A stretch of DNA of 64,000 bases, taken from assembly GCA_030295235.1 (NCBI GenBank), contig AP026139.1, positions 248,001 through 312,000 of the forward strand, read 5' to 3'. Positions 13,251-37,518 of this stretch are shown piece after piece (position 1 is the first letter of the stretch; every line of letters begins with the position of its first letter). The notes below the pieces were generated by a model. That model was not told the origin of the DNA, searched no databases, and saw only the letters and a list, made by a program, of their open reading frames with translations. The stretch is from Fistulifera solaris. Taxonomy: Eukaryota. The translations under genes and the position numbers were made by a program.

Positions 13251-14690
13251 ATGATAAAAAAGCTTTCGGTCTTTCTGTTATCGACAGTAGCCTGTTTACT
13301 GAGATGCAACCACGCCTTTCTATGTCAATCACCGCATCGATCACCCCAATTATTGACACTACAATCGACCATCGGTCCAGCCATTCAAGTCGCCCAATCC
13401 ACACACGATCTCTTGTCTGTATCATTATGGCTACCGACCGACGACAATTTGCCGTCCCATGTTCGTTCCCAACACGTTCATCACGAGAAACGACAACGAT
13501 GGGCGGCGCAGTGGTTGACGCGGTTCATGGAGTTGCAGCAGTCAAGTAGCGATGAAACAGATGCGTCACTTTATGCGGAAGAAGCTTTCGTGAGGACGGT
13601 TATGGCGGCCGCTCAGCCGTACGATGACACTATTCCTCCCACGCGTAAAGAAACACAAGCTATTCGACAATCGTTAGTGGCTTTGCATACACTGTTGCGA
13701 ACGAACTCTAAGAATGGCGTAGCCGCGGAAAGTAAAATAATACCGAGCATACGTCTGTTAATACAGCGCGCGGAGCAAATAGCTCCATTAATACCGTTGC
13801 AGGAAGCAATTGAAGTCCGATGGGCGGTACGGGGTCTCTTGGCCTCTATGGGCGATCAACTCGCATTACCGCAACTCGAACAACGCGTTTCGCGATTGCC
13901 CTTTGATATACTCCCCTGCGGAGTTGCCGACCTGCAATCCGTCTCCGCCTGGCAACAGGATATTCCCTTTCATTTTGATACCATTGTTACACGTACCGGT
14001 GCCAATGTCCAAGAACGACGCGGCACGGCATGGGTCGCCGAGGAAGGAATCGGGGCGTTGGCGTACAGTGGCAAACTCATGACACCGCATCCTTTGCCGG
14101 CGTCGGTTTTACATGTTATGCGACAGGTCGAACATGCCATGGGTCGAACCGAGGGTTCGTTTTTGATTGTGCCCTGTGCAACTGGTATCCTGATGGAGAA
14201 TCGGCTTGTAAATTTCATACCGATCCGGAGCATGGTGAGTTGAGTGAATGACATGCACCTAGATTGAGATTGAGTGCCATCGCTTCGTCGTATTTTGCTT
14301 TACGTAGCTTCTCACACTTTGGTATGATTATGTACTGCAACAGGTACAATGTGGGATCGTCTGACGTGTGTTGTGGCAGCGGGCGATGCTCGGCGGTTTG
14401 CCTTTCGTCCGATTCAAACCTCTTGGGAAGTTTGGGATTTTAACCAGCACACACGGAGGCCACAAACGAAGGGAGTCAACAATGAACCCGCGGTCATTCG
14501 ACTGTTTCCGGGAGATATCGTACAAATGTACGATAGCTGCAACGATGACTTTCATCATGCGGTTTATCCAGATGCAGACGGTCGCGGCCGTGTCAGTTTG
14601 GTGTTGAAACGGGCTCTGCCGCGTGGCAGTAAAGGTCACCGGGGTCATGGATTGGTCGGGGAAGGACGACGATCGCGTCGGAAGCGCTAG
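13251..14690 (+). CDS. AlkB-like 2OG-Fe(II) dioxygenase, probably organelle-targeted
   Basis: N-terminal signal plus HAF motif; ERRGTAW..AYSGKLMTP; FDCALCNWYPDGESACKFHTDPEHG (HxD); intron about 14235-14343; NDDFHHAVYP..GRVSLVLK. Frameshift at about 14160. Confidence 0.82.
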
Positions 14691-18749: not shown

Positions 18750-20181
18750 CTAGCTTCTGTTCCTTTCAAAAACCATCAAACATTCGATGTGTCGAGTTTG
18801 CGGGAATAGATCAAATGGCTGAATATAGGTTGCACCATAGCCTGCTTTCAGTATCCCGGCTGCATCGCGTGCTTGTGTGGTGGGGTCACACGACATGTAC
18901 ACGATCCGCTGGGGAGAAAACGTGTACAGCTGTTCTAAAAACTCTTCACTGCAACCTTTTCTTGGCGGATCTACCACAACAACACTTGTCTCCCGCGGAA
19001 AGTCTTGAATAACCTTAAAAATCCCTTCTGCAGACGCGGAAAGAAACTCGACATTGCTGATACTATTGGCGACAGCGTTCGACGTGGCTTCCTCAATCGC
19101 CAAGTCATTCACTTCAATGCCCACAACACGGTCGAAATGTTTGGCTGCGGAAAGTGCAAACAAGCCGCTTCCACAGTAACAGTCTGCCAAATGAGTCATC
19201 TGATCGCCCTTGATTGCCTGTGCCACGAGCTGTTGCACCATGAGTGGTAGGACGTAATAGTTGTTCTGAAAGAAGTTTCCCGCTCGATACGTAAACTTCA
19301 ACCCATCCACAACAGTTGTTAAAAAGACTTTATGATCGCTCTCGACATAGTCGTCATCTAAATTAGCCTGCCGAAACAGAAGGGTTGCACCTTTTTTCTT
19401 CGTAGAAGGCTCCGACAATAACTTATCGCGTGCGGCTTGATACGCCGCATTTACGGCCGGTGTGGCAATGAGACATTCCGTGACATCAATAATTTGTCGC
19501 GATGTCTGCTTTTGAAAACCAATGGCTTCAACATGTTTCTCGTTATTGACACCTCGCTTGCTTTTTTGCGGGTTGTTGATAGTGAGGTGTCAGCTTGCTG
19601 CGATAGTGCAGCGTTTCATCCGTCCCCAAACAGGGCTGTATTTCGTCATAAGCCACCCCATATTGCTGCAAAGCTTCTTGAACAAGTCGTGTTTTCCATT
19701 CTCTTTGTAAAGGTATGGACATGTGTTGCCATTGACATCCTCCGCAGGCATCCGCAATAGGGCACGGAGGGACGGTCCGCTCGGGACTAGCTTGCAAAAT
19801 TTCCACCAAGTCCGCCTCACTGTAGTTTGGAAAATTCCTAAATATCTTTACTACCACTTTCTCTCCTGGTATAACACCAGGAACCATAATAACCCAAGGT
19901 TTCGTTTCGGAGGAATCGGACGTGTGAGATGAAACGTCAGTTCGACCGATTCCAATTCCGCGATTTGTGAGAGACTCAATCTCGAGCTCAATTTCCTGAT
20001 GATAATGAAACGGAAATGGAACGAAGCGAGCAGGGGACGCGGTGGTATCAGTCGTCGTCGAAAATAGGCACGTTGTTCGGATAGAGTGACGAGCACAGAA
20101 AAGTCTGTTTCCAGAAAAAGCGACGCAGTATTTTAACATAGAAGTGATGATCATCACTTTGCACGCTCTTGATAAGTACAT
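18750..20181 (-). CDS. TRAM-domain RNA (uracil-5)-methyltransferase, TrmA/RlmD family, organelle-targeted
   Basis: IESLTNRGIGIGR..PGEKV (TRAM); CPIADACGGCQWQH; YRSKLTPH; FFQNN; DCYCGSGLF; VDPPRKGC; YMSCDPTTQARD; DLFPQTRHIE. Frameshift near 19550. Confidence 0.92.
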
Positions 20182-20666
20182 TTTAGCTACAGCGGCTCGT
20201 TATCCCAGAACCACTAGCGCCCAGTCAATACAATGTTGGTATTCTCGGGCATCGTCGGCTTGTCGAAGGTGATGGGCGAAAAATTCAAAGTGATGGATGA
20301 TGAGCTGGTAGAGTGCGGGGTAGATGGACAGGCGTCGGCATGTACAGAACAGCCCATAGTTCAGCGCAAAGTAAGGGTGAATGGTCGAGTCCCGGATGAA
20401 CTCTATGTCAAACTCCGACCTCTCATTTATTTCAAGCTGAAAATGCCGAACCTGCTGCACTTATTCTCTATAAATCGAAAATTCAATTTCGAATAATCTT
20501 TGCAAAAAAAATTTAGTAACATTAATCATTCCTTCATGTAGCCATGGAATAAAAACTTCAAAGATGGAAAGCCACCGGGCTGTTCATGCGAACCTTCTTC
20601 CTTGTTCTATCCGAAGGTCGCGACTGAAAAAACAACATCGGTAACTGGTAAAGTGTGAGAAAGAGA

Positions 20667-21880: not shown

Positions 21881-23783
21881 TGTTGCATTCTTCGCCTCTT
21901 ACAACATTGTGATTAAAAGTAAAAACGGAAGCTTAGCCGCACGTTGTGCAAAGCGGCGATGCCCATGTTATTGCCGGCCACCGCCTGTCCGCGCTTTGAC
22001 CAGAACGATAAGGAGGAGAGTGGAGAGTTGAGACCCTTTTCTCGCCCCGTAGATTGTGTCACCAAATTTTTGTAGTTTAGGTCTTGGTGCTATATGTTGT
22101 ACTTTAGTACAGGAAACTATGAAATGTCATTGTTGTAGTCTATACAAAGTGCCAGGTACCTGGTATAGCTCCAAGATTCACCTTATCCGTTTTTCTCTTT
22201 CCGCATTCTGTGCCAGTGCCAGAGCCTCTGACTCTGACGCCCGGTTGCTTCGTATTATAGCTACTGCTAAACGTGCGCCTGTCCAGCTTTGACCCTATGC
22301 CCACCATTTATTTTCTGTTTCTAGAAAGTATAAAAGCAAAAAAACACGAAGACCTAGTTCGTTTCCGAAGCTTTTTACCAGTCAATAAAGGTTAGACGCT
22401 CGACTATGAGCAAAACAGTGGGTTCCTTGGTAATCCAGATTTTAGAGCCAGGGTGAGAAACTGAGAACTTTTAGAGACAGATGACAGATGACAGATATAT
22501 GCCAGATCGCGAAGAACAAAAGAGGTACTCGACACTCGACCCTTTGTTTCTCCGTGTGTGTACCCGTACTTCATACACCTTAGTTCATTGGCTTTGCTGG
22601 ATCTTGTGGCGGAAAGGGTTGTTGTTTAAACGTAGTACAATTAGTACGGTCGACCGTGTGCACGTTCCTTGAGATCTAGATTTGGCGTGGCGCATGCTTT
22701 GCGACAAATATTGTGTTTTGAGACTTAGGAAGCGGCACACAGCACGTAGCCAATGACATAACAAATCATCTAAAATCTAAAATGATTTTGTCTGCAGGTC
22801 TGCAATGCACATCAACCATGTAACAGCGAACAAGGCCAGCAACACAAACACAAACATCGTTCCGACCTCACATTCAAGCTCTTCGACCTTCGACATCAAC
22901 TATCTAGTACTTGTATCTAGTTTAGACGCATTCTCCTCCAGCCTGACAATGGTTAGTGTAGGACTATTTCAGCGTTTCTAATCAGCGTTTCTAAGTCGGA
23001 AAGCGGAGTATTTATTGGCCACGTCTCATTTGTCACTGTTTTTGTCCTATTGTTACCTTTCTCGCCACCGTCCTTGCTTTTCTCACTCGTTTTGACTTTG
23101 TGACTTGCACCATCATACTGGTACTCCTTGGCTTGCACCGATAGTTTTCCAACTTTTGAGGAAGCATCTGAGATAGTTTCCGATACAGGATACAAACAAT
23201 TTAGTGGAGTAGCTAGCAAGTCCCATAGAACACTCGTGTTTGCGTGAAGTTGTTGTTTATCCGATCGTATTCATCTCAAAATTTGATGTTCTTTATGACT
23301 CCACGGACATTTGTTGAGCTTATTCCGTATGAATCGCCATTAGTGAGATCTGTTTCCGGATTTGAGTAAAAATACTTGCAATGCGTTAGAGCTTGTGAAT
23401 ATTATGAACAGCATTCTACCACTTTCTCGACTCAAATTTCTATTCTTGCTGAGGATATGATAAGTCTGACTATTATCGTAATTGCTTTGTAGCTAGACTA
23501 GGTCTCAAGCGAAGCTGTCTTGATGTTTCTTTTCTAAAATTCTTTCGTCAACGTGGGAAAATCAACCCATTTATGGCATTGTCTTTCCGGTTCTCACCGA
23601 TATTATTATGTTCCGCATAATGACATAATGACGTCCGTGCTCGCTCCGGGTCGCTTCGTTCAAGGCTTCGTTATGTTGTCGATAGAAAGTACTCCGTAAT
23701 TCTTTTTCGCAGCAATTCATTCATTCTATCTTTCTTTCGTTCTCGAACCTCCTTGTTTGTATTATTCTTGAGAAAACATCAAC

Positions 23784-26700
23784 ATGCTCTACACCGCACC
23801 AGCCGTAGAGTCGGAGGAACAAATTCACCGCAAGCGTCTTTCGCAACTCTTGCGATACATTGCCAGTATGCATCAAACGCTCGATCAGACGGAAGAGGGA
23901 TGTAGTTTCGTGCGAGAATCTCGTGTCACTCCGTCCGATTTCTTTCAAAAAGAACAAGAGGGTATTCTTTTTTCGATCAACGATTTTCGACAACTGCTGC
24001 AACATCGGCTGCAGCCGCCGCCGTTTTCGTTCTATGCCGCCGCCAGCCGCAAGCGAACGTTCTCGGGTGCCATCAAGGACAACGCCAAAGCGTGTTGGTT
24101 GCGATTGACACGACCCGCGGCGGCACCGGAAGAAGGGACGTACTATCGTCGATTACCGGCCGTGCAAGAGTATTTGGTAGGTTGGTTGTCGCGAACACCG
24201 TCGGTGCAGTCCGTCGAAGAACTCTTGACGTTGAAGCGTTTCGCGAACGCCCCTAAGCCGTCTCCGGAACTGGATTCCCGGAGTCTCCGGGATGTTCGTA
24301 ATTTTTGCGTTTTTATCCAGAACTATTGGTTCACAAAACGCATCAACAGATTCTGGAGCCTGCCTACAATCGTCTGTTTGAATGGGTACAAGAAAATCAT
24401 TCTTCGGAACTTGTTTGGGGTATCGGGCATGCCAAATGGTTCGATGGTTCGGTTTGGGTGAACGGACCGGTGTTAGAAGTCATGGTGGAAGTCGAGTTGG
24501 CGCAGGATGGCGCATTGCTGGTTAGACCGAGAGAACACACGGGTGTGGCATTTCATCGTCCCATCCTGGTGGCGTTGAACTGTGCCGGTAGCGGGGCAGT
24601 GGCATTGCATCGCACAATTTCCGAGCTGGAACCGACGAGTCTGTCTCCGGGACAGCCGGAAACGTATATTCCGCTGTTGAAGCGCATTGTGGTGGAATTG
24701 TCGTCGGCGGGGCGTTTCTTGCATTCAAGTGTTCGTAACACGCAATTCAGTGACTTGGTGGTGACCGAGGCCTGGTGTCTGTTTTGCCGATCGAAGCCAA
24801 GTTCTGTTTGGGCACGGGACGCCGTATCCTTTGCCGATCAACTCGTTGTCGAGACACCGCAACTTCCTTTGGCTACCTGGTCGTTGACGCATGGTCCCAG
24901 TGTCTTGGCGCGCGTGCAGCAAGAGCGACTGAACCAGTCTACGGGTAGTAAACGGCAATGGTGGCCCTGGGGGAAACCATCCGAGACTGTGAAGTACGAC
25001 AAACCTCTCTTTCCTTTACCAACGTCTGAAGCACAGAACCGTATCGCGCATTTACTTTTGGATCAGGAACTACCGGCGGTCATTTGCGAAGGTCCGCCGG
25101 GCACGGGAAAAAACTCATACTATTGCAAATGTCATTTGTGCGTATTTGTGCAAAGGGAAACGCGTACTGGTGACATCGAAGAATTCTGCGGCACTGACGG
25201 TACTCCGAGAACGGTTGCCCCCGAGTATCCGAGACCTTTCCGTGGACGTGTCCGCGAGCGAGTCGACGGGAATGCGGCAACTACAGCGAACGGTCGAACG
25301 ATTGGCGCAACGTATCAGTAGTGTGAGCAATGTATTGGAGGAAGAAAAGTGCCGATATTTGAAGGTACGTTAATGCACTAGTAAAGCTAGTGAGTGTCGA
25401 GTCGTGCAAGGCCGTGCTAATTTGCTTGCTTTTTTACCAGGCGAATATTAGTGATCTTGATCAAGAATTGAACAAGATTGATAGTCATCTTTCGGAACGA
25501 ATTGAAAGTGCCAGGCTTCTGGTCCAGCAGCAAGAGGGTGCAAAGCTCTTACGAATAGCATTAGAGCTTCAAGAGAAAGCCCCGTGGATGTCCAAGTCCT
25601 TGTCAGAATGGTCGATCCATCAAGTGAATACTTTAAGTGATGGTGTAGCAAAGCTCATCGTCCCGCACGATGATCCTGTCCATCAAGTTAGTGGATTCGC
25701 TATTCCCGTAACATCGTTTTTGATATCTCGCGTTGCTATGATGGCCGGTTCCTCTTGGTCCTCTGTCAAAAATAAAGCCAGTGGTATTGTCGCATCTTTG
25801 CCATTAGTTGGGCAAGGAGTGAAAGATCGACTTGAGGAAGTGGAGGACCTGGTGTCTCGAATTCGTTTACGATCGAAATTCCCGGAGACGCCATCAGATT
25901 GGACGATTGTGCTGAGGGCACTTCGTAGGGCGAATGCCGTTTATGATTTTACTAGTTCCACTTGGAAGGCTTACGAGTCCTCTCGCGGCTGGCCGCATTG
26001 GAAGTTTCAGGGACAGAGCAAAGATCTCCACAATTTGCATGGACTACTGCAACATGCTGTTGAATTCAAGCGCCTTGAACGAAGTTTGAAGTTAGCAGAT
26101 CGCAGAGAGGCTGCTGTCCACGCCAGAAACCAGGATACGAGACGCGGTGCTATGGTCTCCCGTCTGCAGCAGCTCGCAGAGGAACTGGTTGACAGCACCG
26201 TTGTCATGGAACTAAACAATTCATTCTCAGTTGATGCACAGAGCGCCCTCATCAAATTCGCACAACTTGCTGGAAAGTCCAAGTTCAATAAGTCTGCCAA
26301 CCCCTCTAAGATGACGGCCAGGCAGCGACGCCGGCGCAGGGAATATCTAGCAGCTTTTGATCAGTGTTGCCGTTTTATCCCTTGTTGGATTCTCACAACA
26401 TCGCAGATATGTGATTATCTTCCGGCAGAACCTGGATTATTCGATCTTGTCATATGCGACGAAGCTTCACAAGCAGAAGTTGTTACCATCCTCCCTGGGA
26501 TGCTTCGAGGGAAACAATGGCTGATTGTTGGTGATACGAAACAGGTTAGCCCCACTGATTGTTTTGTTTCAGAGGAACAAATGGATCTTTTACGAGTGAG
26601 TCTTCCGGAAACACCATTTTCGGAAGCGTTTCTTCCAGGGCAATCCTTCTTTGACTTATGTGCTACAGCTTTCCCCAACGGACGAGTAGTACTGAGTGAA

Positions 26701-28208
26701 CATTTCCGATGCGCTCAAGAGATTATTTCTTTTTCAAATCAGCATTTTTACGACGGGCATTTACTACCTCTCCGGCTTCCGCTTGCCTCTGAGCGGATAA
26801 AACCAAGTCTTTTGGATATCAAAGTGCGGGGAATAAAAGTTGGTAAAGTGAACGAAAAAGAGGCCGAGGAAATTGTTAATCGAATTCAAGCTGTAGTCAA
26901 CACAACCACAAGTACGCCTCGCACCATCGGTGTCATTTCGTTGATGGGAGACGAACAAAGTCGCCTCATTCGTGGCCGCTTGCTTGATCGGGTAGGGCCC
27001 CATCATATGGCGCTACATAATATTCTTGTCGGCGACCCCCAACTTTCCAAGGAGCTGAACGTGATATTATATTTTTGAGCATGGTCGCATCTCCTGGGAG
27101 TGTGCCAACACAATCTCAATTAATGAACTACCAACGTGTCAATGTTGCGATGTCGAGGGCAAGGGATCAATGCATCCTTGTACGGAGCATCGAATTGACA
27201 GATATCCCCTCACAGGACGATGTAAAGGTTCCCGTTCTGACTTTCTTTCGTACAATATCAGAATCAGATGATACAGACGAGGTGAAGCCTCAATCGCCAG
27301 TGCAGCGCTTGCTTCAACGACATCTTATTGAGCAAGGTTTTTCAATACGTCCAATGGGCCTAGTTTGGCCCGGTGGTCTTTGCGTTGAACACGGGGATGC
27401 TCGTGTTGCTCTTCTTGTTGAGGGAAACGGAGAGTCCCTTCTCGAATGGAGAAAGAGTTTTTTACAACAGAAGGCTATTGAGAGAGTGGGATGGAAATGC
27501 CAACGAGTTGATGCATGGTCTCTTCTTACAGAGCCTGTAGGAACTATGAATTCAGTCTGTGACTTCATGGAGTCGCATGGAATCGAGAAACCTATGGTTA
27601 TTTATGATGAGCTAGAAGATGATGAGTCAGAAGTAACCGACCTGGGCAGGCAGATGGGAGACCAGGATGTTGCAGTGCAGGAACAGGCTCCACGACTTGG
27701 ACGAGCCCCCGCCGACACTGAAATCGTCGTAATCAGTAGCGAGGACGATGAACAAGCAAGTAGTCCGGAGCCAGAGGTAGTTTTAAGTAGCGGCAATTTC
27801 GGTCGTAGATCGGACGTTATGGACGAGAATTTATTTGGTGAAGTTGTCGCAATGGATTTTTTGTTACAAAAGCCCGAAGACGACAAAGAAGCTGATTCAT
27901 CGCTGGGACTACTACCACTTGAAGTACCGGTACCGTCATCGTCATGGCAAGGGAAACCTACTTCTGGACGACATGGTGATGAAGTGAACGACGAGGATAA
28001 TGATTTTGATTCTCAAGCGGCAAGCAGACGAAGACAAAAGAAGAAACCACGTCACGAAAGGCGTTCGGCTCGCCCTCACCGACGGCAAAAGCGGTATTCG
28101 TTCTCCGATACAGAAAGTACGGGAGTGGACAGTAAAACTAATGATAGCGGCGATTCTGACAGAGAATGGCTTGAACACAGCTATGATCGACTTTTGCAAG
28201 CCCCGTAA
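23784..28208 (+). CDS. DNA2/NAM7-type SF1 helicase (AAA_11/AAA_12) with C-terminal Vsr/MTES_1575-like nuclease-fold domain
   Basis: [86 protein letters not shown]; then SPVQRLL..GF..VALLVEG..QKAIERVGWKCQRV. Intron 25365-25440; frameshifts near 24340, 25110 and 27040. Confidence 0.88.
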
Positions 28209-28411
28209 GAAGTGTCTAACTATAGAAATTGGTAACCAGATGCTTACACTCCGCAAACTATAAAATTGGAAAGCCGAATTTGATCCTCGGACCTCGTGGC
28301 AAATGTTCGAACGGGATTGCATATCAAGCGACATGTAGTTGTAGCTGTGCCAAAAATCCGAACAGCCTAGAGTGATGCGCGCTAAGGTCGTCTATTATGC
28401 AGAGTTGTTAA

Positions 28412-29750
28412 TCAAACGAAGGATTCCATCTTTTGCCTATTTTCCACTAGGCGGCCCCGCGTCTGAAAACCAAATTTTTGTTAGAAGTGAAATCAAAATG
28501 AGCCCCTTCTTCTCATCTTGGCTCATACTTACATATTCTTTCAATTCATTTTCTAGCTGAGAATCCGGTACGACAACTTCATCGACCTCTTCCTCATCCT
28601 CGTCTTCGTCCTCTGCTTGATTCTTTCGGTGCTTTCTCTTCTTATTCCGTCTTCTCTGAGGCTTCCAGGAACTCCAAAACGAGTCGGGTACTTTCTTTTC
28701 TATTTCCGGGCCCAAATGTTTTTTCAGTGCCTCGTCTTGCGCTTTGCCTCGCGACAGAATGGAAATCTTGGCCTTGGTTGTATCACGCATCAACGGCGAC
28801 AGCAACTTATAGATGGTCTGAAACCATTTGGGCGTGTTGACCACCAGCGTTTGATGGGCTCGTTGCGGGTAATACGAGTCCATGGTACTCACAAAGGTCT
28901 TGACAAAGTTGATAATATCCATTTGTCGCAAAATGCCCAAATGCAATCCTTGCAAGTCAATGACCGATGTCATCGTGGCGAGTGCATTGTCGGCTTCCAC
29001 AATTTGCCACAAATACTCATTAACGTACACATAATGCATCAAAAGCTCTTCTTCGGTCAATTTATTGTCGCGTGCCCGTTGCAGATTAATCCGCGCCGGA
29101 TGCTGCACAAATACCACATGTCCCTCCGTATTGCGACCGAGAAAGTAATGCGGATAAACTGCTTTGCAGAGATCGAATTTGGGGTGCGGAATATTCAAAA
29201 TATTATCAATTTCGTATTTCCGTCTCCATTGCAATGCAGCCTCCAAGGATTGTTTCGCGGCTGCGCGATTCCCACTGTGCATCTTCAAGAATCGTGTCGG
29301 AATTCCGTCCGGATCTGTTTCACTGCCGTCGTCTTTTTGGAACAACCCATACGACTGTGCACGAGCACCGCCTCGTGGATTACTCGACCACCAAGTCGAA
29401 GCCGTGTCGTTGCGTTTCGGAAGAATGTCATACGGATGACCATCTTGTACCGGCAGGCCCGTCAAAACTTCGAGATCGGCTTCTTCTGTAATCGGCAGTT
29501 CCTCAGGCACAAACCAGCAATCATGATTATTAGTATTAGTATTACTCGCAATAGGAAGACTCAATTCAATGAGTGGTCCCATATTTTGAGTCGCAGCATC
29601 GACATTAAACTCATAATTGGACCAAAACAGCAACCGATCGAGGGCCGAACTTCGACGTAATTGTACCGAATCGACTTTGGCTACCACGAAAGTCCAAAGT
29701 GTCGTAAACGTGACGACCGAAATGCATACTTTTATGGAAATAACAAACAT
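28412..29750 (-). CDS. CRAL-TRIO (Sec14-like) lipid-binding protein with N-terminal TM/signal
   Basis: TRFLKMH..ALQWRRKY; SVIDLQGL; YYPQRAHQTLVVNTPKWFQTIYKLLSPLMRDTTKAKI. A probable terminal intron at about 28463-28532 gives ..ELKEY|TRGRLVENRQKMESFV*. Confidence 0.9.
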
Positions 29751-30306
29751 TGAATTGTAAGAAAGAGAGATGTTATTCACGTACTTTCAAGAATATGAAA
29801 AGATAAAATAATGATGTTGAAAGTAAAAAAAACTCCAAAAGAATCCGTCGTCCAAAAATTAGTCGTATAAAAATACGAACGAGCCACAGGACGACTTTTT
29901 TTCCATCCATCTCTGTCGGACTTTTCGCGCAAAAAATATTGCATCGGTCCGATTCTCATACTGTTGGTTGGATACTTTGTAGACGAGTGGCACTCCGCGA
30001 TGAAGAACAGTCCTGTCACCGTTCCGACATTCATCGGGTCTTGTTTCTTCGGCAGACGACGGAAGGACCATTGGGTCCGTCCTTCCTTCGCGTCACACAG
30101 ATCATAGTCGGCGTGCGCGCGCGGAGGGGACAATGACGAGGATTAAGAAGAGGCGTGTGGAGGAGACTGTACTTTTGCTTTTACCAAAAGAATGGCAATG
30201 ATGATGCGGAGGTGTGTTTGGTTGTAATCATACATCGTATTACTTTCTTGTAGCGGTGGATCCTTTCACACACAAACACACACACACATAACTACTCATT
30301 CGTATC

Positions 30307-33300
30307 ATGGCAAATGACGATGAATCTGCCTCATCATCTGCCGTCGAATTCGACGGTATGGATATGAATGAAGAAGAAGAAGAAGAAGTCGCCGTCGATG
30401 AGGACGACGAAGAGGAAAACCTTCTGCCCGACGATACGAACAATACGGAAGATTTAGCGAATCAAGATGACTTGGAGATGGAAGAAACTCGGAAGGAACG
30501 AATGGAACTCATGGCAGCGGAAACCAAGTCCGTCATTTTGCCCGACGATGCGCAAGGACGTTTTGAATATTTGATGCAACAATCGGAAGTCTTTGCTCAT
30601 TTCTTGGCGGGTACGTGTCGGTCTGTATGCTGTAAAGATGCGCTCATCCTCTACTTACGCTTTGCTTTCATTATCACAGGATCTGTCGCAGCCACGGATG
30701 CGAAAAAGAGTAAAAAGGGATCACGCGGTCGTCTCACGGAGGCGGAAGAAGATGCTTTGTTGCTCAAGAGTGCGTCGAGTAAGCGACGTGTCATTCGCTT
30801 GGATCATCAACCATCGAATTTAGCCGATCATTGTAAAATGCATCCGTATCAGCTAGAAGGTCTCAATTGGTTGATCAAACTCCATGATCACGGAATCAGC
30901 GGTATCTTGGCAGATGAAATGGGATTGGTAGGTACTGAAAACGAATCTTTTGCCCCTCTTTATTTCAACTGGTCTCACTACTCTTTTGATACAGGGAAAA
31001 ACGCTACAAACGATATCCATGTTGGCCTATTTGCGCGAAGGCCGAGGAGTAAAAGGGCCTCATCTGGTTATTGTCCCGAAAAGTGTCGTGGGAAACTGGA
31101 TGAGAGAATTCAAAAGTGGTGCCCCGTCATTCGTACGATGCGAATGGGTGGCACCAAAGAAGAACGTCAGCGCTTCCTGGCGACAGGATTTGCTCCCCGA
31201 CGCGAATGGGAAAAACACCGTGCCGAAATTTGATGCCCTGGTGACGAGTTACGAAGGTCTGTTGAAAGAGAAGGGGCGTCTGAGCAAAGTGGCGTGGCAA
31301 TACGTGATCATTGACGAAGCTCATCGCATCAAAAACGAGCAGTCGTCACTGAGCATTGCCGTCCGCAATATGAAGACACAATTTCGATTGCTGATTACGG
31401 GAACTCCTCTACAAAACAATCTGCGGGAACTGTGGGCTTTACTGAACTTTATCATGCCCGATATCTTTGGAGACGCCGACATGTTTGATCAGTGGTTCAG
31501 TTTGGCGGACGACTCGGGGAAAGAGAATGTGATCAAAAAATTGCACACGGTGTTGCGTCCCTTCATGTTGCGTCGTGTAAAAAAGGATGTCGCCACAGCA
31601 CTCCCTCCGAAGAAAGAAACGCGTTTGTATATTGGATTGACCGAGATGCAACGCGAGTGGTACATCAAATGCCTGCGAAAGGAAGCACACGAACTGAACA
31701 AATTGGGCGGACCCGACAAAAACCGGCTGCTCAATGTGTTAATGCAGTTGCGCAAGTGCTGCAATCATCCTTACTTGTTCGATGGCGCTGAAGAAGGACC
31801 TCCCTATTCCGATGGACCGCATCTTTGGGAAAATAGTGGCAAGATGCAATTGCTTCACAAGCTTCTACCAAAACTTAAGGCCAACGACAGTCGAGTCCTC
31901 ATCTTTAGTCAGATGACGAGAGTGCTGGATATCCTGGAAGACTACTTTCGATTGGTAAATTACGATTATTGTCGTATTGATGGCAACACAGATGGTGAGA
32001 AGCGCGACTCTCAGATGGACGAATTCAATCGTGTTGGCTCGCCCAAGTTTGCCTTCTTATTGAGCACCCGAGCTGGTGGACTAGGTATCAATCTAGCGAC
32101 CGCGGACATTGTGATTTTGTACGATAGGTAAGTGTCAAGTTGTTGGTCGGGCAATTAAAACTTGGTTACTGATGATGGCACCGTCGTATAAAACGCTCTT
32201 CAGTGACTGGAATCCACAAGTCGATTTGCAAGCCATGGATAGAGCGCATCGCATCGGGCAAACAAAGCCGGTTCAAGTCTTTCGTTTCATTACGGAAGGA
32301 ACCGTTGAAGAGAAGATTATTGAACGAGCTGACCGCAAACTCTTTCTAGACGCTGCAGTTATTCAGCAAGGTCGCCTTGCAGAGCAGCATTCATCCCTTG
32401 AGAAAAACGAACTGATGAAGATGGTTCAGTTTGGGGCCGATCAAATTCTCAGCGGGACGGGTGGGCAATATACTGACGAAGATATTGATGCCTTGATTGC
32501 AAAAGGCCAGGAACGAACCGACGCCATGCAAGCAAAACTCCAGAAAGATGCCAAGCATAACCTTGCTAATTTTAGTCTACTCTCGGAGGATGACTCAGGA
32601 AGGGACACCTTTGCGTTCGACGGCAAAAATTACCGTGACGCGGACAAAAATCCTGGAAATTTCATCAATCTTCCGCAACGCCAGCGCAAACGGGTGTACG
32701 ACCTGGCAGCGTCGAGCCAAGGTACTTCGGCCGCAATGAAGGGTCATGCCGCCGATGCTACGGCCAAGAAGAAAAGGAAGGGACCCGCATTGCACGATTT
32801 TCAATTGTTCGATATGGAGCGCATGAATTCTATTTTGACGAAAGAGCGCGAGCTTGCCACAAAGAAGGCTAATCGAATTGCAGCTATCAACGACATGAGA
32901 CAGCGAGGTGTCGAAGCCCCTCCCCGTTCCGCTGGAGTGGCCCAAGGGCACGGTCGTGAAGACTACCTGGAAGAAGCAGACCGACAAGAAGCAACGTTGG
33001 ATGATATTAAACTTACACCCGAGGAAGAGGAAGAAAAGAAGAAGCTGTTCGCAGAAGGTTTTCCTGACTGGAGTCGCAAAGACTTCAAGGCGTTTTGCTC
33101 CGGTCTTGAAAAATATGGTCGCTACGACTTTCCGAACGTCTGTAATGAAGTAATAAGCGAGACAGGGAAGACGAGACAGGAAATTCAGCGATATTTTGTC
33201 GCCTTTTGGACGCACTATCAAAGAATCAAGGAGTGGCCGAAGATTCTTGAGAAAGTTGAACGCGGTGAAAAGAAAATCTTGCGATTGCGACAGATTCGTG

Positions 33301-33749
33301 ACGCCATTCAAGAGAAGGTTGAGCGTCATCTCGAAGACACGTTTGGACCGCATTACGGACAGAATGCCAAGACGTCGGAAGGAAAGCCACTTCCCAGTCT
33401 ATCCGAGATGCTTCACTATTCATGGCCTATGATGAAAATTAACTATGGCTCTAGCAGTCGGGGAAAAGGTTATCGCGAAGAGGAGGATGCGTTTCTGGTT
33501 TGCATGATGTACCGCCACGGTTTTGGAGCGGCAGAACGCATCCGCATGGAGATCAGAAGAGCGTGGCAGTTTCGATTCGACTGGTACTTTAAATCCCGTT
33601 CAGCCGCTGAAATTCAACGACGCTGCGAGGCGATTGTAAAGGTGATCGAGCGCGAGAACGAGGATTTGCGTAAGAAGGAAGAAGGGGAGCTAAAGGACCC
33701 ACTTACCGAATTGCCAGAACAGACTCCTTCGACGCCACCATCAAGGTAA
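30307..33749 (+). CDS. ISWI: ISWI-family SNF2 chromatin-remodelling ATPase (HAND-SANT-SLIDE)
   Basis: [98 protein letters not shown]. Introns near 30611-30679, 30927-30995 and 32129-32203; two compensating frameshifts at about 31115-31190. Confidence 0.96.
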
Positions 33750-35091: not shown

Positions 35092-35960
35092 ATTGATTGA
35101 TGGGTTGGGAATGGTTCACTTTGCGGATGCTCGGAAGAAAGATTATTGTGAACCTTGGATCTTAAATTGCTTTTTGCAAAAAAAGATGGATGATATCTTG
35201 GCGGCAAGATTCAAATGAACAAAAAGTGCTTATAGTTGATACAAAACCACAGGATTAGGATTTGAATGGAGTATCAATGCTACTGTACACATTCTCTGTG
35301 TTGTCGAACAGTTTTTGCCTAAGCCAAACTACCTGGTACCAAACTACCAAGTACTACGTAACTTGAACCTTCCGACTTCCGAATAATCCAGCAATGGAAA
35401 ACGAAACAATGAAACTATACTGAACCCTAAACCTAAACCTAAAAACTGTAAGTTTACCGGTACCGTACCGGTACCGTAGCTGAACCAAACTGAACCTTGA
35501 CTTGCTACAAAGTATCGGACACTTATATTTCAACGGAATATTACAGGTTTCCCCACTGATAGCTTTTTTGAAACAAATTTTATAGATAGCCACTCGCCGA
35601 TGTCTCCCGTAACCGCCACGCAAACCATTGTTTGTTTCACTTTATTGTCTCCAATCGATCGTTTTCTCGTTCTCTTGTTTCACCTCTCTACAAAGTACGT
35701 CTCTCTCTCTCTCTAGAGAAAGTCGTTGTCTTTGTCCCCTTATGATTCATTCCAAATCGAGAGACTATATCAAGGGTTACTTTTCAATTATTGGAACAAG
35801 ATGGATGCCTGTTGCGGAATGTGAGTTTTTCTTGGCGCTGTATTGTATTGTATATTTGTTGTTGTGCATCATCATCATCGTTCATCGTCTTTTTTTTCGC
35901 TCAAAACAGCAATGTTCGTTCTTTTGGCACAGCGACTTTTGTGTCAATACTACCGATGTT

Positions 35961-37518
35961 ATGGACACATCTAAGCGAGAAGATATGCCGTATTCTTTAG
36001 AAGAAAGGCCGAAAGTCAAACGAACGAATGATAATAAAGCTGGTGAACTTGCTTCGGTTGTTTTGCACAACGATCTTCTTTTAACGGAAGACGACGATGT
36101 TGAACTCGCGCAATCCAATAGACAGATAGAACAAGTGGAAGACGAATTAAGTCAAACGGTCAAATCTACCGCAAAAATTGTTGCGCGAACCACCATCGAA
36201 GGCATCAAATATTTCGTTTCCCTGGCCTTGCTCGGCTTTTCCATGGTCCTCATTACCGCGGCCATGTTCACCGAACAAACGACTTCTACAGCAGAAAATG
36301 GTATGCATCCTGCCGTCACATTCTGTGTCTTTTCATTCCTCATTGTCTGGCTCGCCATGATGGAAGGAGGACAAGGTTGCTTGGTCGGCTTGCAAACAAT
36401 TGACAAAACATTATACGCCGAGTCTCATCCCCGAGCATTTCGGACCACACAACTGGCACATAAGGGAGACAACATGGAACGATTCATGGTGGGTCGCCAG
36501 TTTTTGGTGGTTCTCGTCATTTTGTGATGAATATGATGTCGTCGACGGTCGAACAAGCCAGTGTGTTCAGTTTGCCGGAAAGCGTGATCGGTGTCTTTCT
36601 CGATTCCGGAATTGCCGTCATATTGACCACCGTCATGGTGGGTCAATTAACATCGCAAGTGAATGCCGCCCAATGCATGCTGGATTTTATCAACAATTCG
36701 TTCATGACGTTGACCGTGTACGTCTCTTTGGCCATTGAAACGTCCGGGCTGTTACATTCGGTATACTTGATCAGCATTCTCTTTTCCACATTGTCAGGAA
36801 AATCGATTCCATCGAACGAATCATCAGGTCGCACATATCTACAAAAGTTGTTCTTTTGGATTCGGATTTTATTCTCTGTGGCGATTCTCGTCGCCGCCTT
36901 TGTCTTTACTTTGGGTGCTTTGTTCTCGGGAAAGACCATGGCATGGGGTGGTATACCGACTGCTGTATCGGTGGCAATCTTCTTTCTTCTCATGGGTTTT
37001 GCGGGTCTGTTGGACGGTCTCCAAATTGCTTTATTCGCCGTGGTTAACAGGACCGAATCCGAACTGTCCGATCATCCTCTGGCGCATCGAAGTTGTCAGT
37101 TGGTATTCCGTGAGCCGCATACATTGGGTGCCTTTTTGATTGGACGTCAAATCTGCGTGACCGTGTGCATGTTCGTGGTGGCTCGCATTACCGCCATTCA
37201 TGTCGATGACAGTGAGACTCTCTTTGGCGTCAGTGAGGGTGTCCAACAATTCCTCAATACCGGCTTGTTGGGGGCCCTATTAACGACGATTGTTGCCTCC
37301 TTGGTTTGGCGCGTCATCGCCGCGGCATTCCCAATTGCCTTTTGTCGAATCCGCTGGTGTACATGATCATTCGACTTTGTTTACTGCTGGAACAATCGGG
37401 AATCTGCTCGGCCTCTTGGACGTTGGCCAGTCTACAGAAGAAACTGTTCGGTTTTCGTCCCGACGACGAGTATTTGGTTGATTTACGACGCAAAGAAAGT
37501 ACTTGCAGTAATTTATAA
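35961..37518 (+). CDS. SIT: Silicon transporter (SIT)
   Basis: SIT motifs MMEGGQGCLVGL, FMVGRQFLVV, GQLTSQVNAAQCMLDFIN, LLDGLQIALF, FLIGRQICVT, IVASLVWR..AFPIAF, LEQSGICSASW. Frameshifts at about 36522 and 37343 (T-runs). Confidence 0.95.

Follow-up and report, generated by a model that had tools for sequence, protein, structure and literature searches.

The window analysed here comprises 64,000 nucleotides of the diatom Fistulifera solaris (contig AP026139.1, positions 248,001 to 312,000) and contains on its + strand the gene FisN_27Lh017 (23784..28208), the product of which combines an N-terminal domain (N-domain), a helicase of superfamily 1B (SF1B) and a C-terminal domain with the fold of the Vsr nucleases. 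An old transfer of a bacterial gene for a DUF4011-like/SF1B helicase/Vsr-nuclease protein fits best as the origin of this gene in both subgenomes of F. solaris and in many other diatoms. With a probability of roughly 0.55, we regard the product as a domesticated nuclear SF1B helicase of bacterial descent, in which the N-domain and the Vsr-fold domain were kept as nucleic-acid modules and the classical catalytic set of the nuclease was lost. Diatoms are major primary producers, and little is known of how they fend off viruses and maintain their genomes; genes of bacterial origin are common in them. In the present case, early diatoms would have acquired a whole multi-domain helicase-nuclease from the Hhe/Prometheus superfamily of bacteria. 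The gene would then have gained an intron and a tail of eukaryotic type and been kept by selection while its nuclease motif was rebuilt. The protein is a candidate for asking whether algal nuclei have put defence helicases of prokaryotes to new use and what the structurally unmatched N-domain, which is common to bacteria and diatoms, does. Since the protein had already been deposited as a hypothetical protein, the claim is limited to this extent.

The gene consists of two exons, starts with ATG at 23784, ends with the stop codon TAA at 28206-28208 and specifies 1449 amino acids after three single-base homopolymer corrections. As given in the window, the coding sequence is distributed over five pieces in three reading frames (23784-24299, 24302-25108, 25110-25364, 25441-27033 and 27036-28205), which represent residues 1-172, 174-442, 443-527, 528-1058 and 1060-1449 of the deposited 1449-residue protein letter for letter and match it everywhere but at the residues of the breaks. 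When the longest piece was used as a protein query, the search yielded 100% identity to 'hypothetical protein FisN_27Lh017 [Fistulifera solaris]'. Three of the four frame changes are located at homopolymers: one T is missing from a T5 run (24302..24306), where the deposited protein has RDVRNFLRFYPE, one A is in excess in an A6 run within the Walker A codons (25108..25113), and one C is missing from a C5 run in helicase motif V (27036..27040), where the deposited protein has VGDPPTFQGAERD. The fourth is a spliceosomal intron of 76 bases with GT..AG borders (25365..25440) that shifts the frame by +1 and across which the deposited protein continues from ..RYLK to ANISD..; the intron that the first-pass annotation of this DNA had postulated was verified.

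Contigs from four public sequencing runs of the same organism (X1-X4) were aligned to positions 23700-28300. An extra T behind 24301 was present in run X1, with one gap in both contigs covering 24212-24562; one base fewer at 25108 was detected in five contigs from all four runs (X1-X4), and an extra C behind 27035 was again found in run X1. Since these changes restore exactly one reading frame and the deposited protein matches, the three breaks are assembly errors. The intron is skipped exactly by one contig of run X3 (with a side of 39 letters) and is read through by a contig of run X1. The gene is present as a single copy in each of the two subgenomes, and the second copy (the homeologue FisN_27Hh017) is 95% identical; contigs of the second copy, differing by about 8%, were also present among the runs. 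Of the differences between the window and the other copy, 40 were listed and 181 further exist; 31 of the 40 affect third codon positions (37 of the 40 were assigned by computation and three by hand). This bias is the pattern of purifying selection on both copies.

The three frame breaks in the window DNA as given would also be expected of a decaying pseudogene, that is, of a relic of horizontal transfer broken by frameshifts. This explanation is scarcely credible and largely refuted, as all three breaks coincide with homopolymers and are corrected in contigs of the same organism, the deposited proteins of both homeologues are of full length, the two copies differ mainly at third codon positions, and a spliced contig is present. 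Moreover, other genes of the window are likewise split over overlapping frames. The gene is intact, expressed and nuclear. The corrected reading on which the first-pass annotation relied was right, although it was silent on the fact that the window DNA does not form one open frame.

With respect to the encoded protein, all sequence motifs quoted in that annotation were recovered on the + strand within 23784-28208. In the deposited protein (P0001), YNRLF begins at residue 195, ELVWGIG at 209, PCWIL at 841, VICDEASQ at 864, ALLVEG at 1184 and ERVGW at 1208, and a 16-letter motif at residue 437 straddles the break in the A run. The N-domain (24302..25027, +; residues ~174-415) includes ELVWGIG at 24407-24427 and was recognised by BLASTP and HMMER as common to a bacterial family of proteins. 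It is followed by the first part of helicase domain 1A (25010..25518, +), which corresponds to residues 417-553 in the Pfam AAA_11 match, carries Walker A at 25091-25115 and harbours the intron. An insertion of about 290 residues (25519..26391, +; residues 554-844) interrupts domain 1A, and its distal part aligns with a longer insertion of the bacterial proteins. The second part of domain 1A together with domain 2A (26392..27182, +; Pfam AAA_11 and AAA_12) includes Walker B (VICDEASQ, 26449-26472) and motif VI (27141-27164). The insertion had been proposed before and is borne out by the AAA_11 match, which is split into residues 417-553 and 845-899.

A Pfam search with the whole protein detected the SF1B helicase core only, with AAA_12 (residues 928-1108) at 69.8 bits and AAA_11 at 57.3 bits against a cut-off of 27 in each case, so that the protein belongs to these helicase families. 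Walker A, Walker B (DEASQ) and motif VI (NVAMSRAR) are intact. With the N-terminal pieces and the insertion, no Pfam family was found at E<=10. An AlphaFold2 model of the N-domain, calculated from 54 aligned relatives, reached a mean predicted local distance difference test score (pLDDT) of 83.3, with 137 of 269 residues at >=90. Compared with the Protein Data Bank (PDB), this model gave template modelling (TM) scores of <=0.16 with Foldseek and a best Z of 3.5 against 48,161 PDB chains with VIA-align, which is not proof of a new fold. In an hhalign comparison of the N-region (51 sequences) with 26 DUF4011 proteins, a probability of 97.5% was obtained when the Q-motif and Walker A were included; without the helicase motifs, the probability was 31% (E 5e-4) over 78 columns with the core ELVWG.G..W / PLL..VE. 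A distant relationship of the N-domain to DUF4011 is plausible on these alignments. Targeting to plastids or mitochondria was considered and rejected, as the N-terminus MLYTAPAVESEEQ is acidic and, as judged by eye and not by computation, unlike a signal peptide.

The C-terminal domain (27291..27587, +; residues ~1145-1243) was assigned to the MTES_1575-like Vsr fold by an AlphaFold2 model and VIA-align, and its motif is remodelled according to residue counts, with the elements GLCVEH at 27375-27392, ALLVEG at 27408-27425 and ERVGW at 27480-27494 (+). The model of residues 1110-1255 has a pLDDT of 89.8 and shows the order alpha-beta-beta-beta-alpha-beta. The best VIA-align matches were the catalytic domain of I-Bth0305I (3r3p; Z 11.6, root-mean-square deviation (rmsd) 2.3 over 92 residues), Vsr (1cw0; Z 11.0, rmsd 2.0 over 96 residues) and the DUF559 structure 3hrl of NGO0050 (Z 10.8), followed by RAP, Bax1, VRR_NUC and Hjc domains with Z 7-9, including the RAP domain of FASTKD4 (9gek; Z 8.9). 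The structures 1cw0, 3r3p, 3hrl and 9gek superimpose on the diatom domain with rmsd 2.0-3.1 over 89-98 residues at a sequence identity of 10-17%; they differ from it as small stand-alone or differently fused domains, and the diatom domain is devoid of the D...E.DG..H set that 3hrl has in common with the bacterial relatives. Foldseek alone gave weak matches to the C-domain (E>=0.011), nearly all of them nucleases of the Vsr-type fold. The model and VIA-align establish a Vsr-type fold.

At the sequence level this domain has departed from its bacterial counterparts. MTES_1575 was defined as a novel restriction endonuclease domain of the Vsr family in PMC3710099. The corresponding Pfam profile (PF18741, cut-off 38.2 bits) gave no match at E<=0.01 with the F. 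solaris protein P0001 or with P0003, and the other nine of the 11 scanned diatom proteins reached 16.9-29.8 bits, below the cut-off, in contrast to 82.5-106.7 bits for all three bacterial relatives scanned. The catalytic residues followed the same trend: among 25 bacterial relatives, the helix Glu is kept in 24, the Asp of IDL in 25, the Glu and Asp of I-E-x-D-G in 24 and 25, and the His in 22, and this set is also seen in the DUF559 structure 3hrl. Among 18 diatom sequences, the helix Glu is present in three, and neither the Glu of I-E-x-D-G (now L, M, C, A, I or T) nor the His is present in any. The central Glu is replaced by Cys in all six sister sequences, and in the eukaryote clade as a whole (24 sequences) the central Glu and the motif His are lost from 24 each and the helix Glu from 21. 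As no member of this clade retains the canonical set, the change can be dated to about the time of transfer. The claim of a nuclease made for this gene stands with respect to the fold (Z 11 to Vsr), but the word 'nuclease' is doubtful in view of a motif that is remodelled in all sequences of the eukaryote clade. We consider it somewhat more probable than not from the residue pattern that the classical nuclease activity of the diatom Vsr-fold domain has been lost.

Homologues of the protein were searched among 8000 scored candidates, 336 of which matched at E<=1e-3 and 120 of which were listed. Among the matches listed, the first 83 rows had an identity of 41-100%, in most cases along the entire query, and all named rows were diatoms: Fistulifera, Amphora, Pseudo-nitzschia, Nitzschia, Cylindrotheca, Seminavis, Attheya, Thalassiosira exigua, Mayamaea, a Bacillariaceae metagenome-assembled genome (MAG) and an MMETSP row whose truncated name ends in 'Extubo'. 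Entomoneis and Epithemia were added by other searches. The names Phaeodactylum and Thalassiosira pseudonana were absent from the matches listed in two homologue searches, which hints at gene loss in these diatoms. Below the diatom rows followed bacterial proteins of about 1500 amino acids with strong matches to MTES_1575 and DUF559. BLASTP comparisons with two of them (P0087 and P0095) yielded 284 and 287 bits with 35-36% identity for the helicase and the Vsr-fold domain, and 142 and 138 bits with 27-32% identity (E 8e-38 and 2e-36) for the N-domain; diatom and bacterial proteins align collinearly from end to end. A HMMER search of 1.84 billion proteins with the N-domain alone detected 262 representatives at E<=1e-3. 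A diatom-like group of 56 at E<=1e-30 with 44-62% identity was separated by a gap from sequences with 26-36% identity, which are about 1500 amino acids long where they are of full length and carry the N-domain in the same place. The family is small and rare. A scan of one genome per prokaryotic species nevertheless located full-length members in the Pseudomonadota, Thermodesulfobacteriota, Bacillota, Actinomycetota, Acidobacteriota, Planctomycetota and Chloroflexota.

This bacterial family, which is annotated as 'AAA domain-containing protein / very-short-patch-repair endonuclease' and otherwise unnamed, shows the whole layout of the diatom proteins in the same order, namely the N-domain (ELVWG.G..W / PLLE..VE.E), Walker A, a long insertion, the remainder of the SF1B helicase and the MTES_1575 Vsr-fold domain. 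Examples are a protein of a Thiohalomonadales MAG (P0095) and those of Azohydromonas australica, Blastomonas, Halomonas, Desulfobacteraceae and Clostridium (L001-L006, L015, L023). It differs from the diatom proteins in three respects: the E / D / E.DG / H set is kept (22-25 of 25) and MTES_1575 scores 82-107 bits, whereas the diatoms reach at most 29.8 bits and have lost most of these residues; the insertion is longer; and some members end in a GreA/B-like domain where the diatom proteins carry a tail of the VVISSDDE type. In a MAG of the Chloroflexia (L048, 9482-14277), MTES_1575 is encoded by a separate open reading frame (ORF; 13342-14277) that overlaps the end of the helicase ORF, an arrangement representing either a split gene or a frameshift. 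The collinearity confirms that the architecture of N-domain, split SF1B helicase and Vsr/MTES_1575 fold is of prokaryotic type, as the first-pass annotation had proposed. The accompanying claim that the protein is unlike the eukaryotic helicases UPF1 and SEN1 held as well: UPF1, SEN1 and IGHMBP2 have the AAA_11/AAA_12 core in common with the diatom protein, but the solved structures match at 30-35 bits over short stretches, with no chain matching the N-domain or the Vsr-fold domain, and TIGR00376 scored 101.3 bits against a cut-off of 348.9, which places the protein outside the IGHMBP2/UPF1/SEN1 type. No paper on the diatom family was found in a literature search; a survey of gene transfer in diatoms (Vancaester et al. 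2020) may include it.

Two phylogenetic trees were calculated. The first (FastTree, 104 rows) included 18 of the 83 diatom-like proteins, five intermediates, 48 metagenome proteins, 17 named bacterial loci and, as outgroup, 12 more distant loci; the 48 metagenome rows were all of P0086-P0120 with >=1300 amino acids together with 21 full-length matches from the HMMER search with the N-domain. For the second tree (IQ-TREE, LG+G4, 'quick' mode; 69 rows, 1179 columns), four DUF4011/Hhe-type proteins were added to the outgroup. In both trees, the diatom orthologues form one clade with a support of 100, in which centric and pennate taxa are separated. The sister of this clade is composed of two extra proteins of Seminavis robusta and one other protein, and the next branch consists of Ala/Arg-rich proteins with Lys/Arg-rich, acidic tails. 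When rooted with the outgroup, the eukaryote-like clade (support 100) lies four nodes deep in the bacterial family, with values of 96-100 in the Shimodaira-Hasegawa-like approximate likelihood ratio test (SH-aLRT) at these nodes; the bacterial rows near it include proteins of Thiohalomonadales, Desulfobacteraceae and Halomonas. A transfer from bacteria fits best because the family and the outgroups are prokaryotic and extend over many phyla, and the eukaryotic members are restricted to the diatoms and a few other sequences.

Two further groups of sequences were noticed around the diatom clade. The extra proteins of S. robusta (P0177 and P0192) are far more divergent paralogues that occur beside its orthologue P0052. 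The Ala/Arg-rich proteins (P0084, P0085, P0176, P0257 and P0258) represent a third eukaryote-like lineage, in which the nuclease motif is also remodelled. The cluster of P0258 includes a fragment of 121 amino acids filed under Picomonas judraskeda. A Protein Atlas search with P0085 also led to related clusters, the entries of which carry no taxon. A metagenome scan with P0176 for DNA or introns of the third lineage returned 337 pattern matches, none of which was confirmed.

Several observations weigh against the reading as an old bacterial transfer with loss of the catalytic set. An approximately unbiased (AU) test did not reject the best tree that unites the 44 bacterial family rows in a single clade (difference in log-likelihood 19.2, p 0.267), and most of the 'bacterial' rows in the trees are metagenome proteins without a name. 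Splicing is known from a single contig of run X3, and none of the runs is recorded as RNA, the labels of their kind being guesses. Acidic residues persist in the diatom Vsr-fold domain: the Glu of CVE and an Asp or Glu at LVD/LVE (the Asp of E-x-D-G) are kept in 18 of 18 sequences each, and Glu replaces the motif His in 15 of 18. The Glu of L-C-V-E aligns with the catalytic Asp in one alignment and with the downstream Glu of V-V-E-G in another, and the strand register R-x-A-I-x-x-D-G, as we read it, favours the latter pairing; depending on the alignment, the Asp of IDL is thus either lost from the diatoms or replaced by Glu. A variant metal site, and hence nuclease activity, is accordingly conceivable for the diatom domain. 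Finally, the SUMO-type motif described below, the location of the protein in the nucleus and its substrate are inferred.

As a consequence of the AU test, nesting among the bacteria is a best estimate only, the diatom clade could occupy a sister position, and no donor can be named. The nesting among bacterial sequences that the first-pass annotation had named as supporting evidence is shown by the outgroup-rooted trees but is not statistically secure. A position outside the sampled bacterial family would suit a vertically inherited, ancient eukaryotic helicase, as would the third eukaryote-like lineage with its single Picomonas-labelled fragment; a bacterial contaminant of the assembly would likewise dispense with a transferred gene. 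Both explanations are very unlikely. Contamination is excluded by the intron, the poly(A)-bearing, silicon-transporter and ISWI neighbours of the gene and the two homeologous copies in both subgenomes. Against vertical inheritance, all named eukaryotic matches are diatoms apart from the Picomonas-labelled fragment, the next outgroups (DUF4011/Hhe-type proteins) are prokaryotic too, and UPF1, SEN1 and IGHMBP2 are much more distant. The transfer of a bacterial gene therefore remains the preferred origin.

Comparison with curated families of defence proteins placed the gene in the wider neighbourhood of two anti-phage proteins. A PADLOC search with the full protein returned PDC-S37 at 151.6 bits, MkoC at 118, MkoA at 115 and Hhe at 86.3; these matches are confined to the C-terminal half of the helicase, with or without the nuclease fold, and the Hhe match covers profile positions 1359-1654 of 1911 only. 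The NCBIfam profiles ProA and Hhe scored 169.8 bits against a cut-off of 1500 and 119.5 bits against 2000, so that the protein falls outside both families; the bacterial relatives are also far below these cut-offs (ProA 206-244 bits, Hhe 128-179 bits). Judged by these scores, neither the diatom protein nor the bacterial family to which it is related belongs to ProA or Hhe, and both are to be classified as their relatives. In the preferred reading, the bacterial family is a sister group of Prometheus (ProA) and Hhe, which are anti-phage proteins. The designation as a protein of the Hhe type in the first-pass annotation was thus not upheld.

Prometheus (NF058533; best-matching PADLOC model PDC-S37) is the curated family with the best score for the diatom protein. 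It is likewise a single large protein with an N-domain, an SF1B helicase with an insertion and an MTES_1575-type domain, and ProA is described as having four domains, with an N-terminal DUF4011, a characteristic insertion within its 'DNA2' domain and a C-terminal DUF3320 (PMC13700489, citing van den Berg et al. 2024). Only the C-terminal half of the helicase (residues 838-1116 of P0001) aligns with Prometheus, and Pfam found neither DUF4011 (PF13195, down to E<=10) nor DUF3320 on the diatom protein. A literature search on the name PDC-S37 returned no paper. Hhe (NF042953, PADLOC PDLC02194) follows the same logic of a helicase with a Vsr-fold domain and is tabulated as a DUF4011 protein in PMC11232893; in the tree, Hhe-type rows form part of the outgroup and lie outside the family.

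The genomic surroundings of the bacterial homologues were examined by PADLOC with 124 of the 134 ORFs of >=100 amino acids within 5 kb of the gene at 18 loci. The ten ORFs left out belong to L053 (its entire set of six), L034 (three) and L035 (one), so that 17 loci remained; an ORF of 2599 amino acids on the opposite strand of L034 is not among the 134. Near-full-length defence proteins adjoin four of the 17 homologues: a type IIG restriction-modification enzyme in Blastomonas (918 bits), HmaC in Halomonas (1575 bits), PDC-S02 together with GmrSD-like and Mrr proteins in Bacillus, and BrxA, BrxB and BrxC in Halanaerobium. Candidate matches (PDC-S31, PDC-M03B and JAB) adjoin three more loci, generic helicase, methylase or regulator matches four, and six of the 17 are without a PADLOC match. 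Five loci (L002, L004, L005, L006 and L035) also carry genes for integrases or transposases. In three Clostridium species (L015 552-4844, L023 4488-8834 and L076 4992-9357), the homologue is located downstream of the genes for isoleucyl-tRNA synthetase (IleRS) and a LacI-type regulator, which is a conserved housekeeping context and not a defence island. These data are suggestive of an association of the bacterial homologues with defence islands; the association, which the first-pass annotation had named as a point to check, is backed by the strong matches at four loci but is moderate and uncontrolled.

By analogy to Hhe and Prometheus, and in line with the first-pass annotation, the diatom protein might act as an active nucleic-acid sensor and effector of a system directed against viruses or mobile elements, in which the helicase would drive the recognition of foreign nucleic acid and a variant Vsr site would cleave it. 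This view could draw on the nearest curated families by score, namely the anti-phage proteins ProA and Hhe (PDC-S37, MkoC and Hhe in PADLOC), on the seven bacterial loci with defence proteins or candidates nearby, on the two or three acidic residues that diatoms conserve in their Vsr-fold domain and on a distribution that looks patchy among the matches listed. We nonetheless hold it to be unlikely, as the scores amount to about one tenth of the curated cut-offs, a good part of the loci show no PADLOC match or a housekeeping context, and the central catalytic Glu is lost throughout the eukaryote clade. In addition, a gene tree that broadly separates centric from pennate diatoms and the purifying selection indicated by third codon positions do not reflect the rapid turnover typical of immune genes. 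A still bolder and improbable extension would be that diatoms and at least one other marine eukaryotic lineage have domesticated a Prometheus/Hhe-like defence protein with a rebuilt acidic site and a SUMO-motif-like tail for nuclear immunity against viruses or mobile DNA; if true, one of the major phytoplankton groups would possess a new type of eukaryotic immunity that derives from prokaryotes.

If the preferred reading as a domesticated helicase with a disabled nuclease site is correct, the protein would still use ATP to translocate along, or to unwind, DNA or RNA-DNA hybrids in the nucleus as other SF1B enzymes do, with the N-domain and the Vsr-fold domain holding or recognising nucleic acid. 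As the latter is devoid of the canonical bacterial catalytic set, it would more likely serve as a binding or structural module than as a classical Mg-dependent nuclease. The cellular role could lie in genome or R-loop maintenance or in defence.

After the transfer, the C-terminal extensions of the bacterial proteins, which are GreA/B-like in some relatives, would have given way to an acidic/basic tail. This tail comprises the last ~200 residues (27594..28205, +), is of low complexity and includes a conserved motif IVVISSEDDE (27723-27752, +) and a basic run RRRQKKKPRHERRSARPHRRQKR (28026-28094, +). A hydrophobic-Ser-acidic motif was present in 37 of 72 diatom-like tails of >=60 residues, in none of 21 bacterial tails and in 31 of 3600 shuffled sequences. 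Judged by consensus patterns, IVVISSEDDE resembles a phospho-regulated SUMO-interaction motif, and RRRQKKKPRHERRSARPHRRQKR resembles a nuclear localisation signal. Among the matches listed, a GreA/GreB C-terminal domain is predicted in nine of the 35 bacterial rows P0086-P0120 (within P0093-P0116); our own Pfam scan of P0103 gave 29.8 bits for GreA_GreB against a cut-off of 26.9. This domain hints at a tie of the bacterial family to RNA polymerase. The diatom proteins are without it and carry the acidic tail directly after the Vsr-fold domain.

A helicase borne on a transposon was also considered and ruled out, as the gene is single-copy in each subgenome, the orthologues track the relationships of the diatoms and neither repeats nor a transposase were seen. 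The adjacent genes of the window encode a CRAL/TRIO protein (28437-29786, - strand) with a poly(A)-type loose end, a chromatin remodeller and a silicon transporter. With respect to the first, a contig of run X4 ends in 24 T before 28225, which on the - strand reads as the poly(A) tail of the CRAL/TRIO transcript in the form of the other copy; this end suggests that run X4 holds RNA. The ISWI-type remodeller (SNF2-rel_dom, Helicase_C and SLIDE; 30292-33749, +) is distributed over three overlapping frames, which may result from introns or from assembly indels. The silicon transporter (Pfam Silic_transp; 35613-37366, +) occupies two frames that overlap at 36464-36527 in what looks like another single-base assembly error. 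Upstream of the helicase gene, a tRNA (uracil-5)-methyltransferase with a TRAM domain (18750-20199, -) is likewise encoded in two frames.

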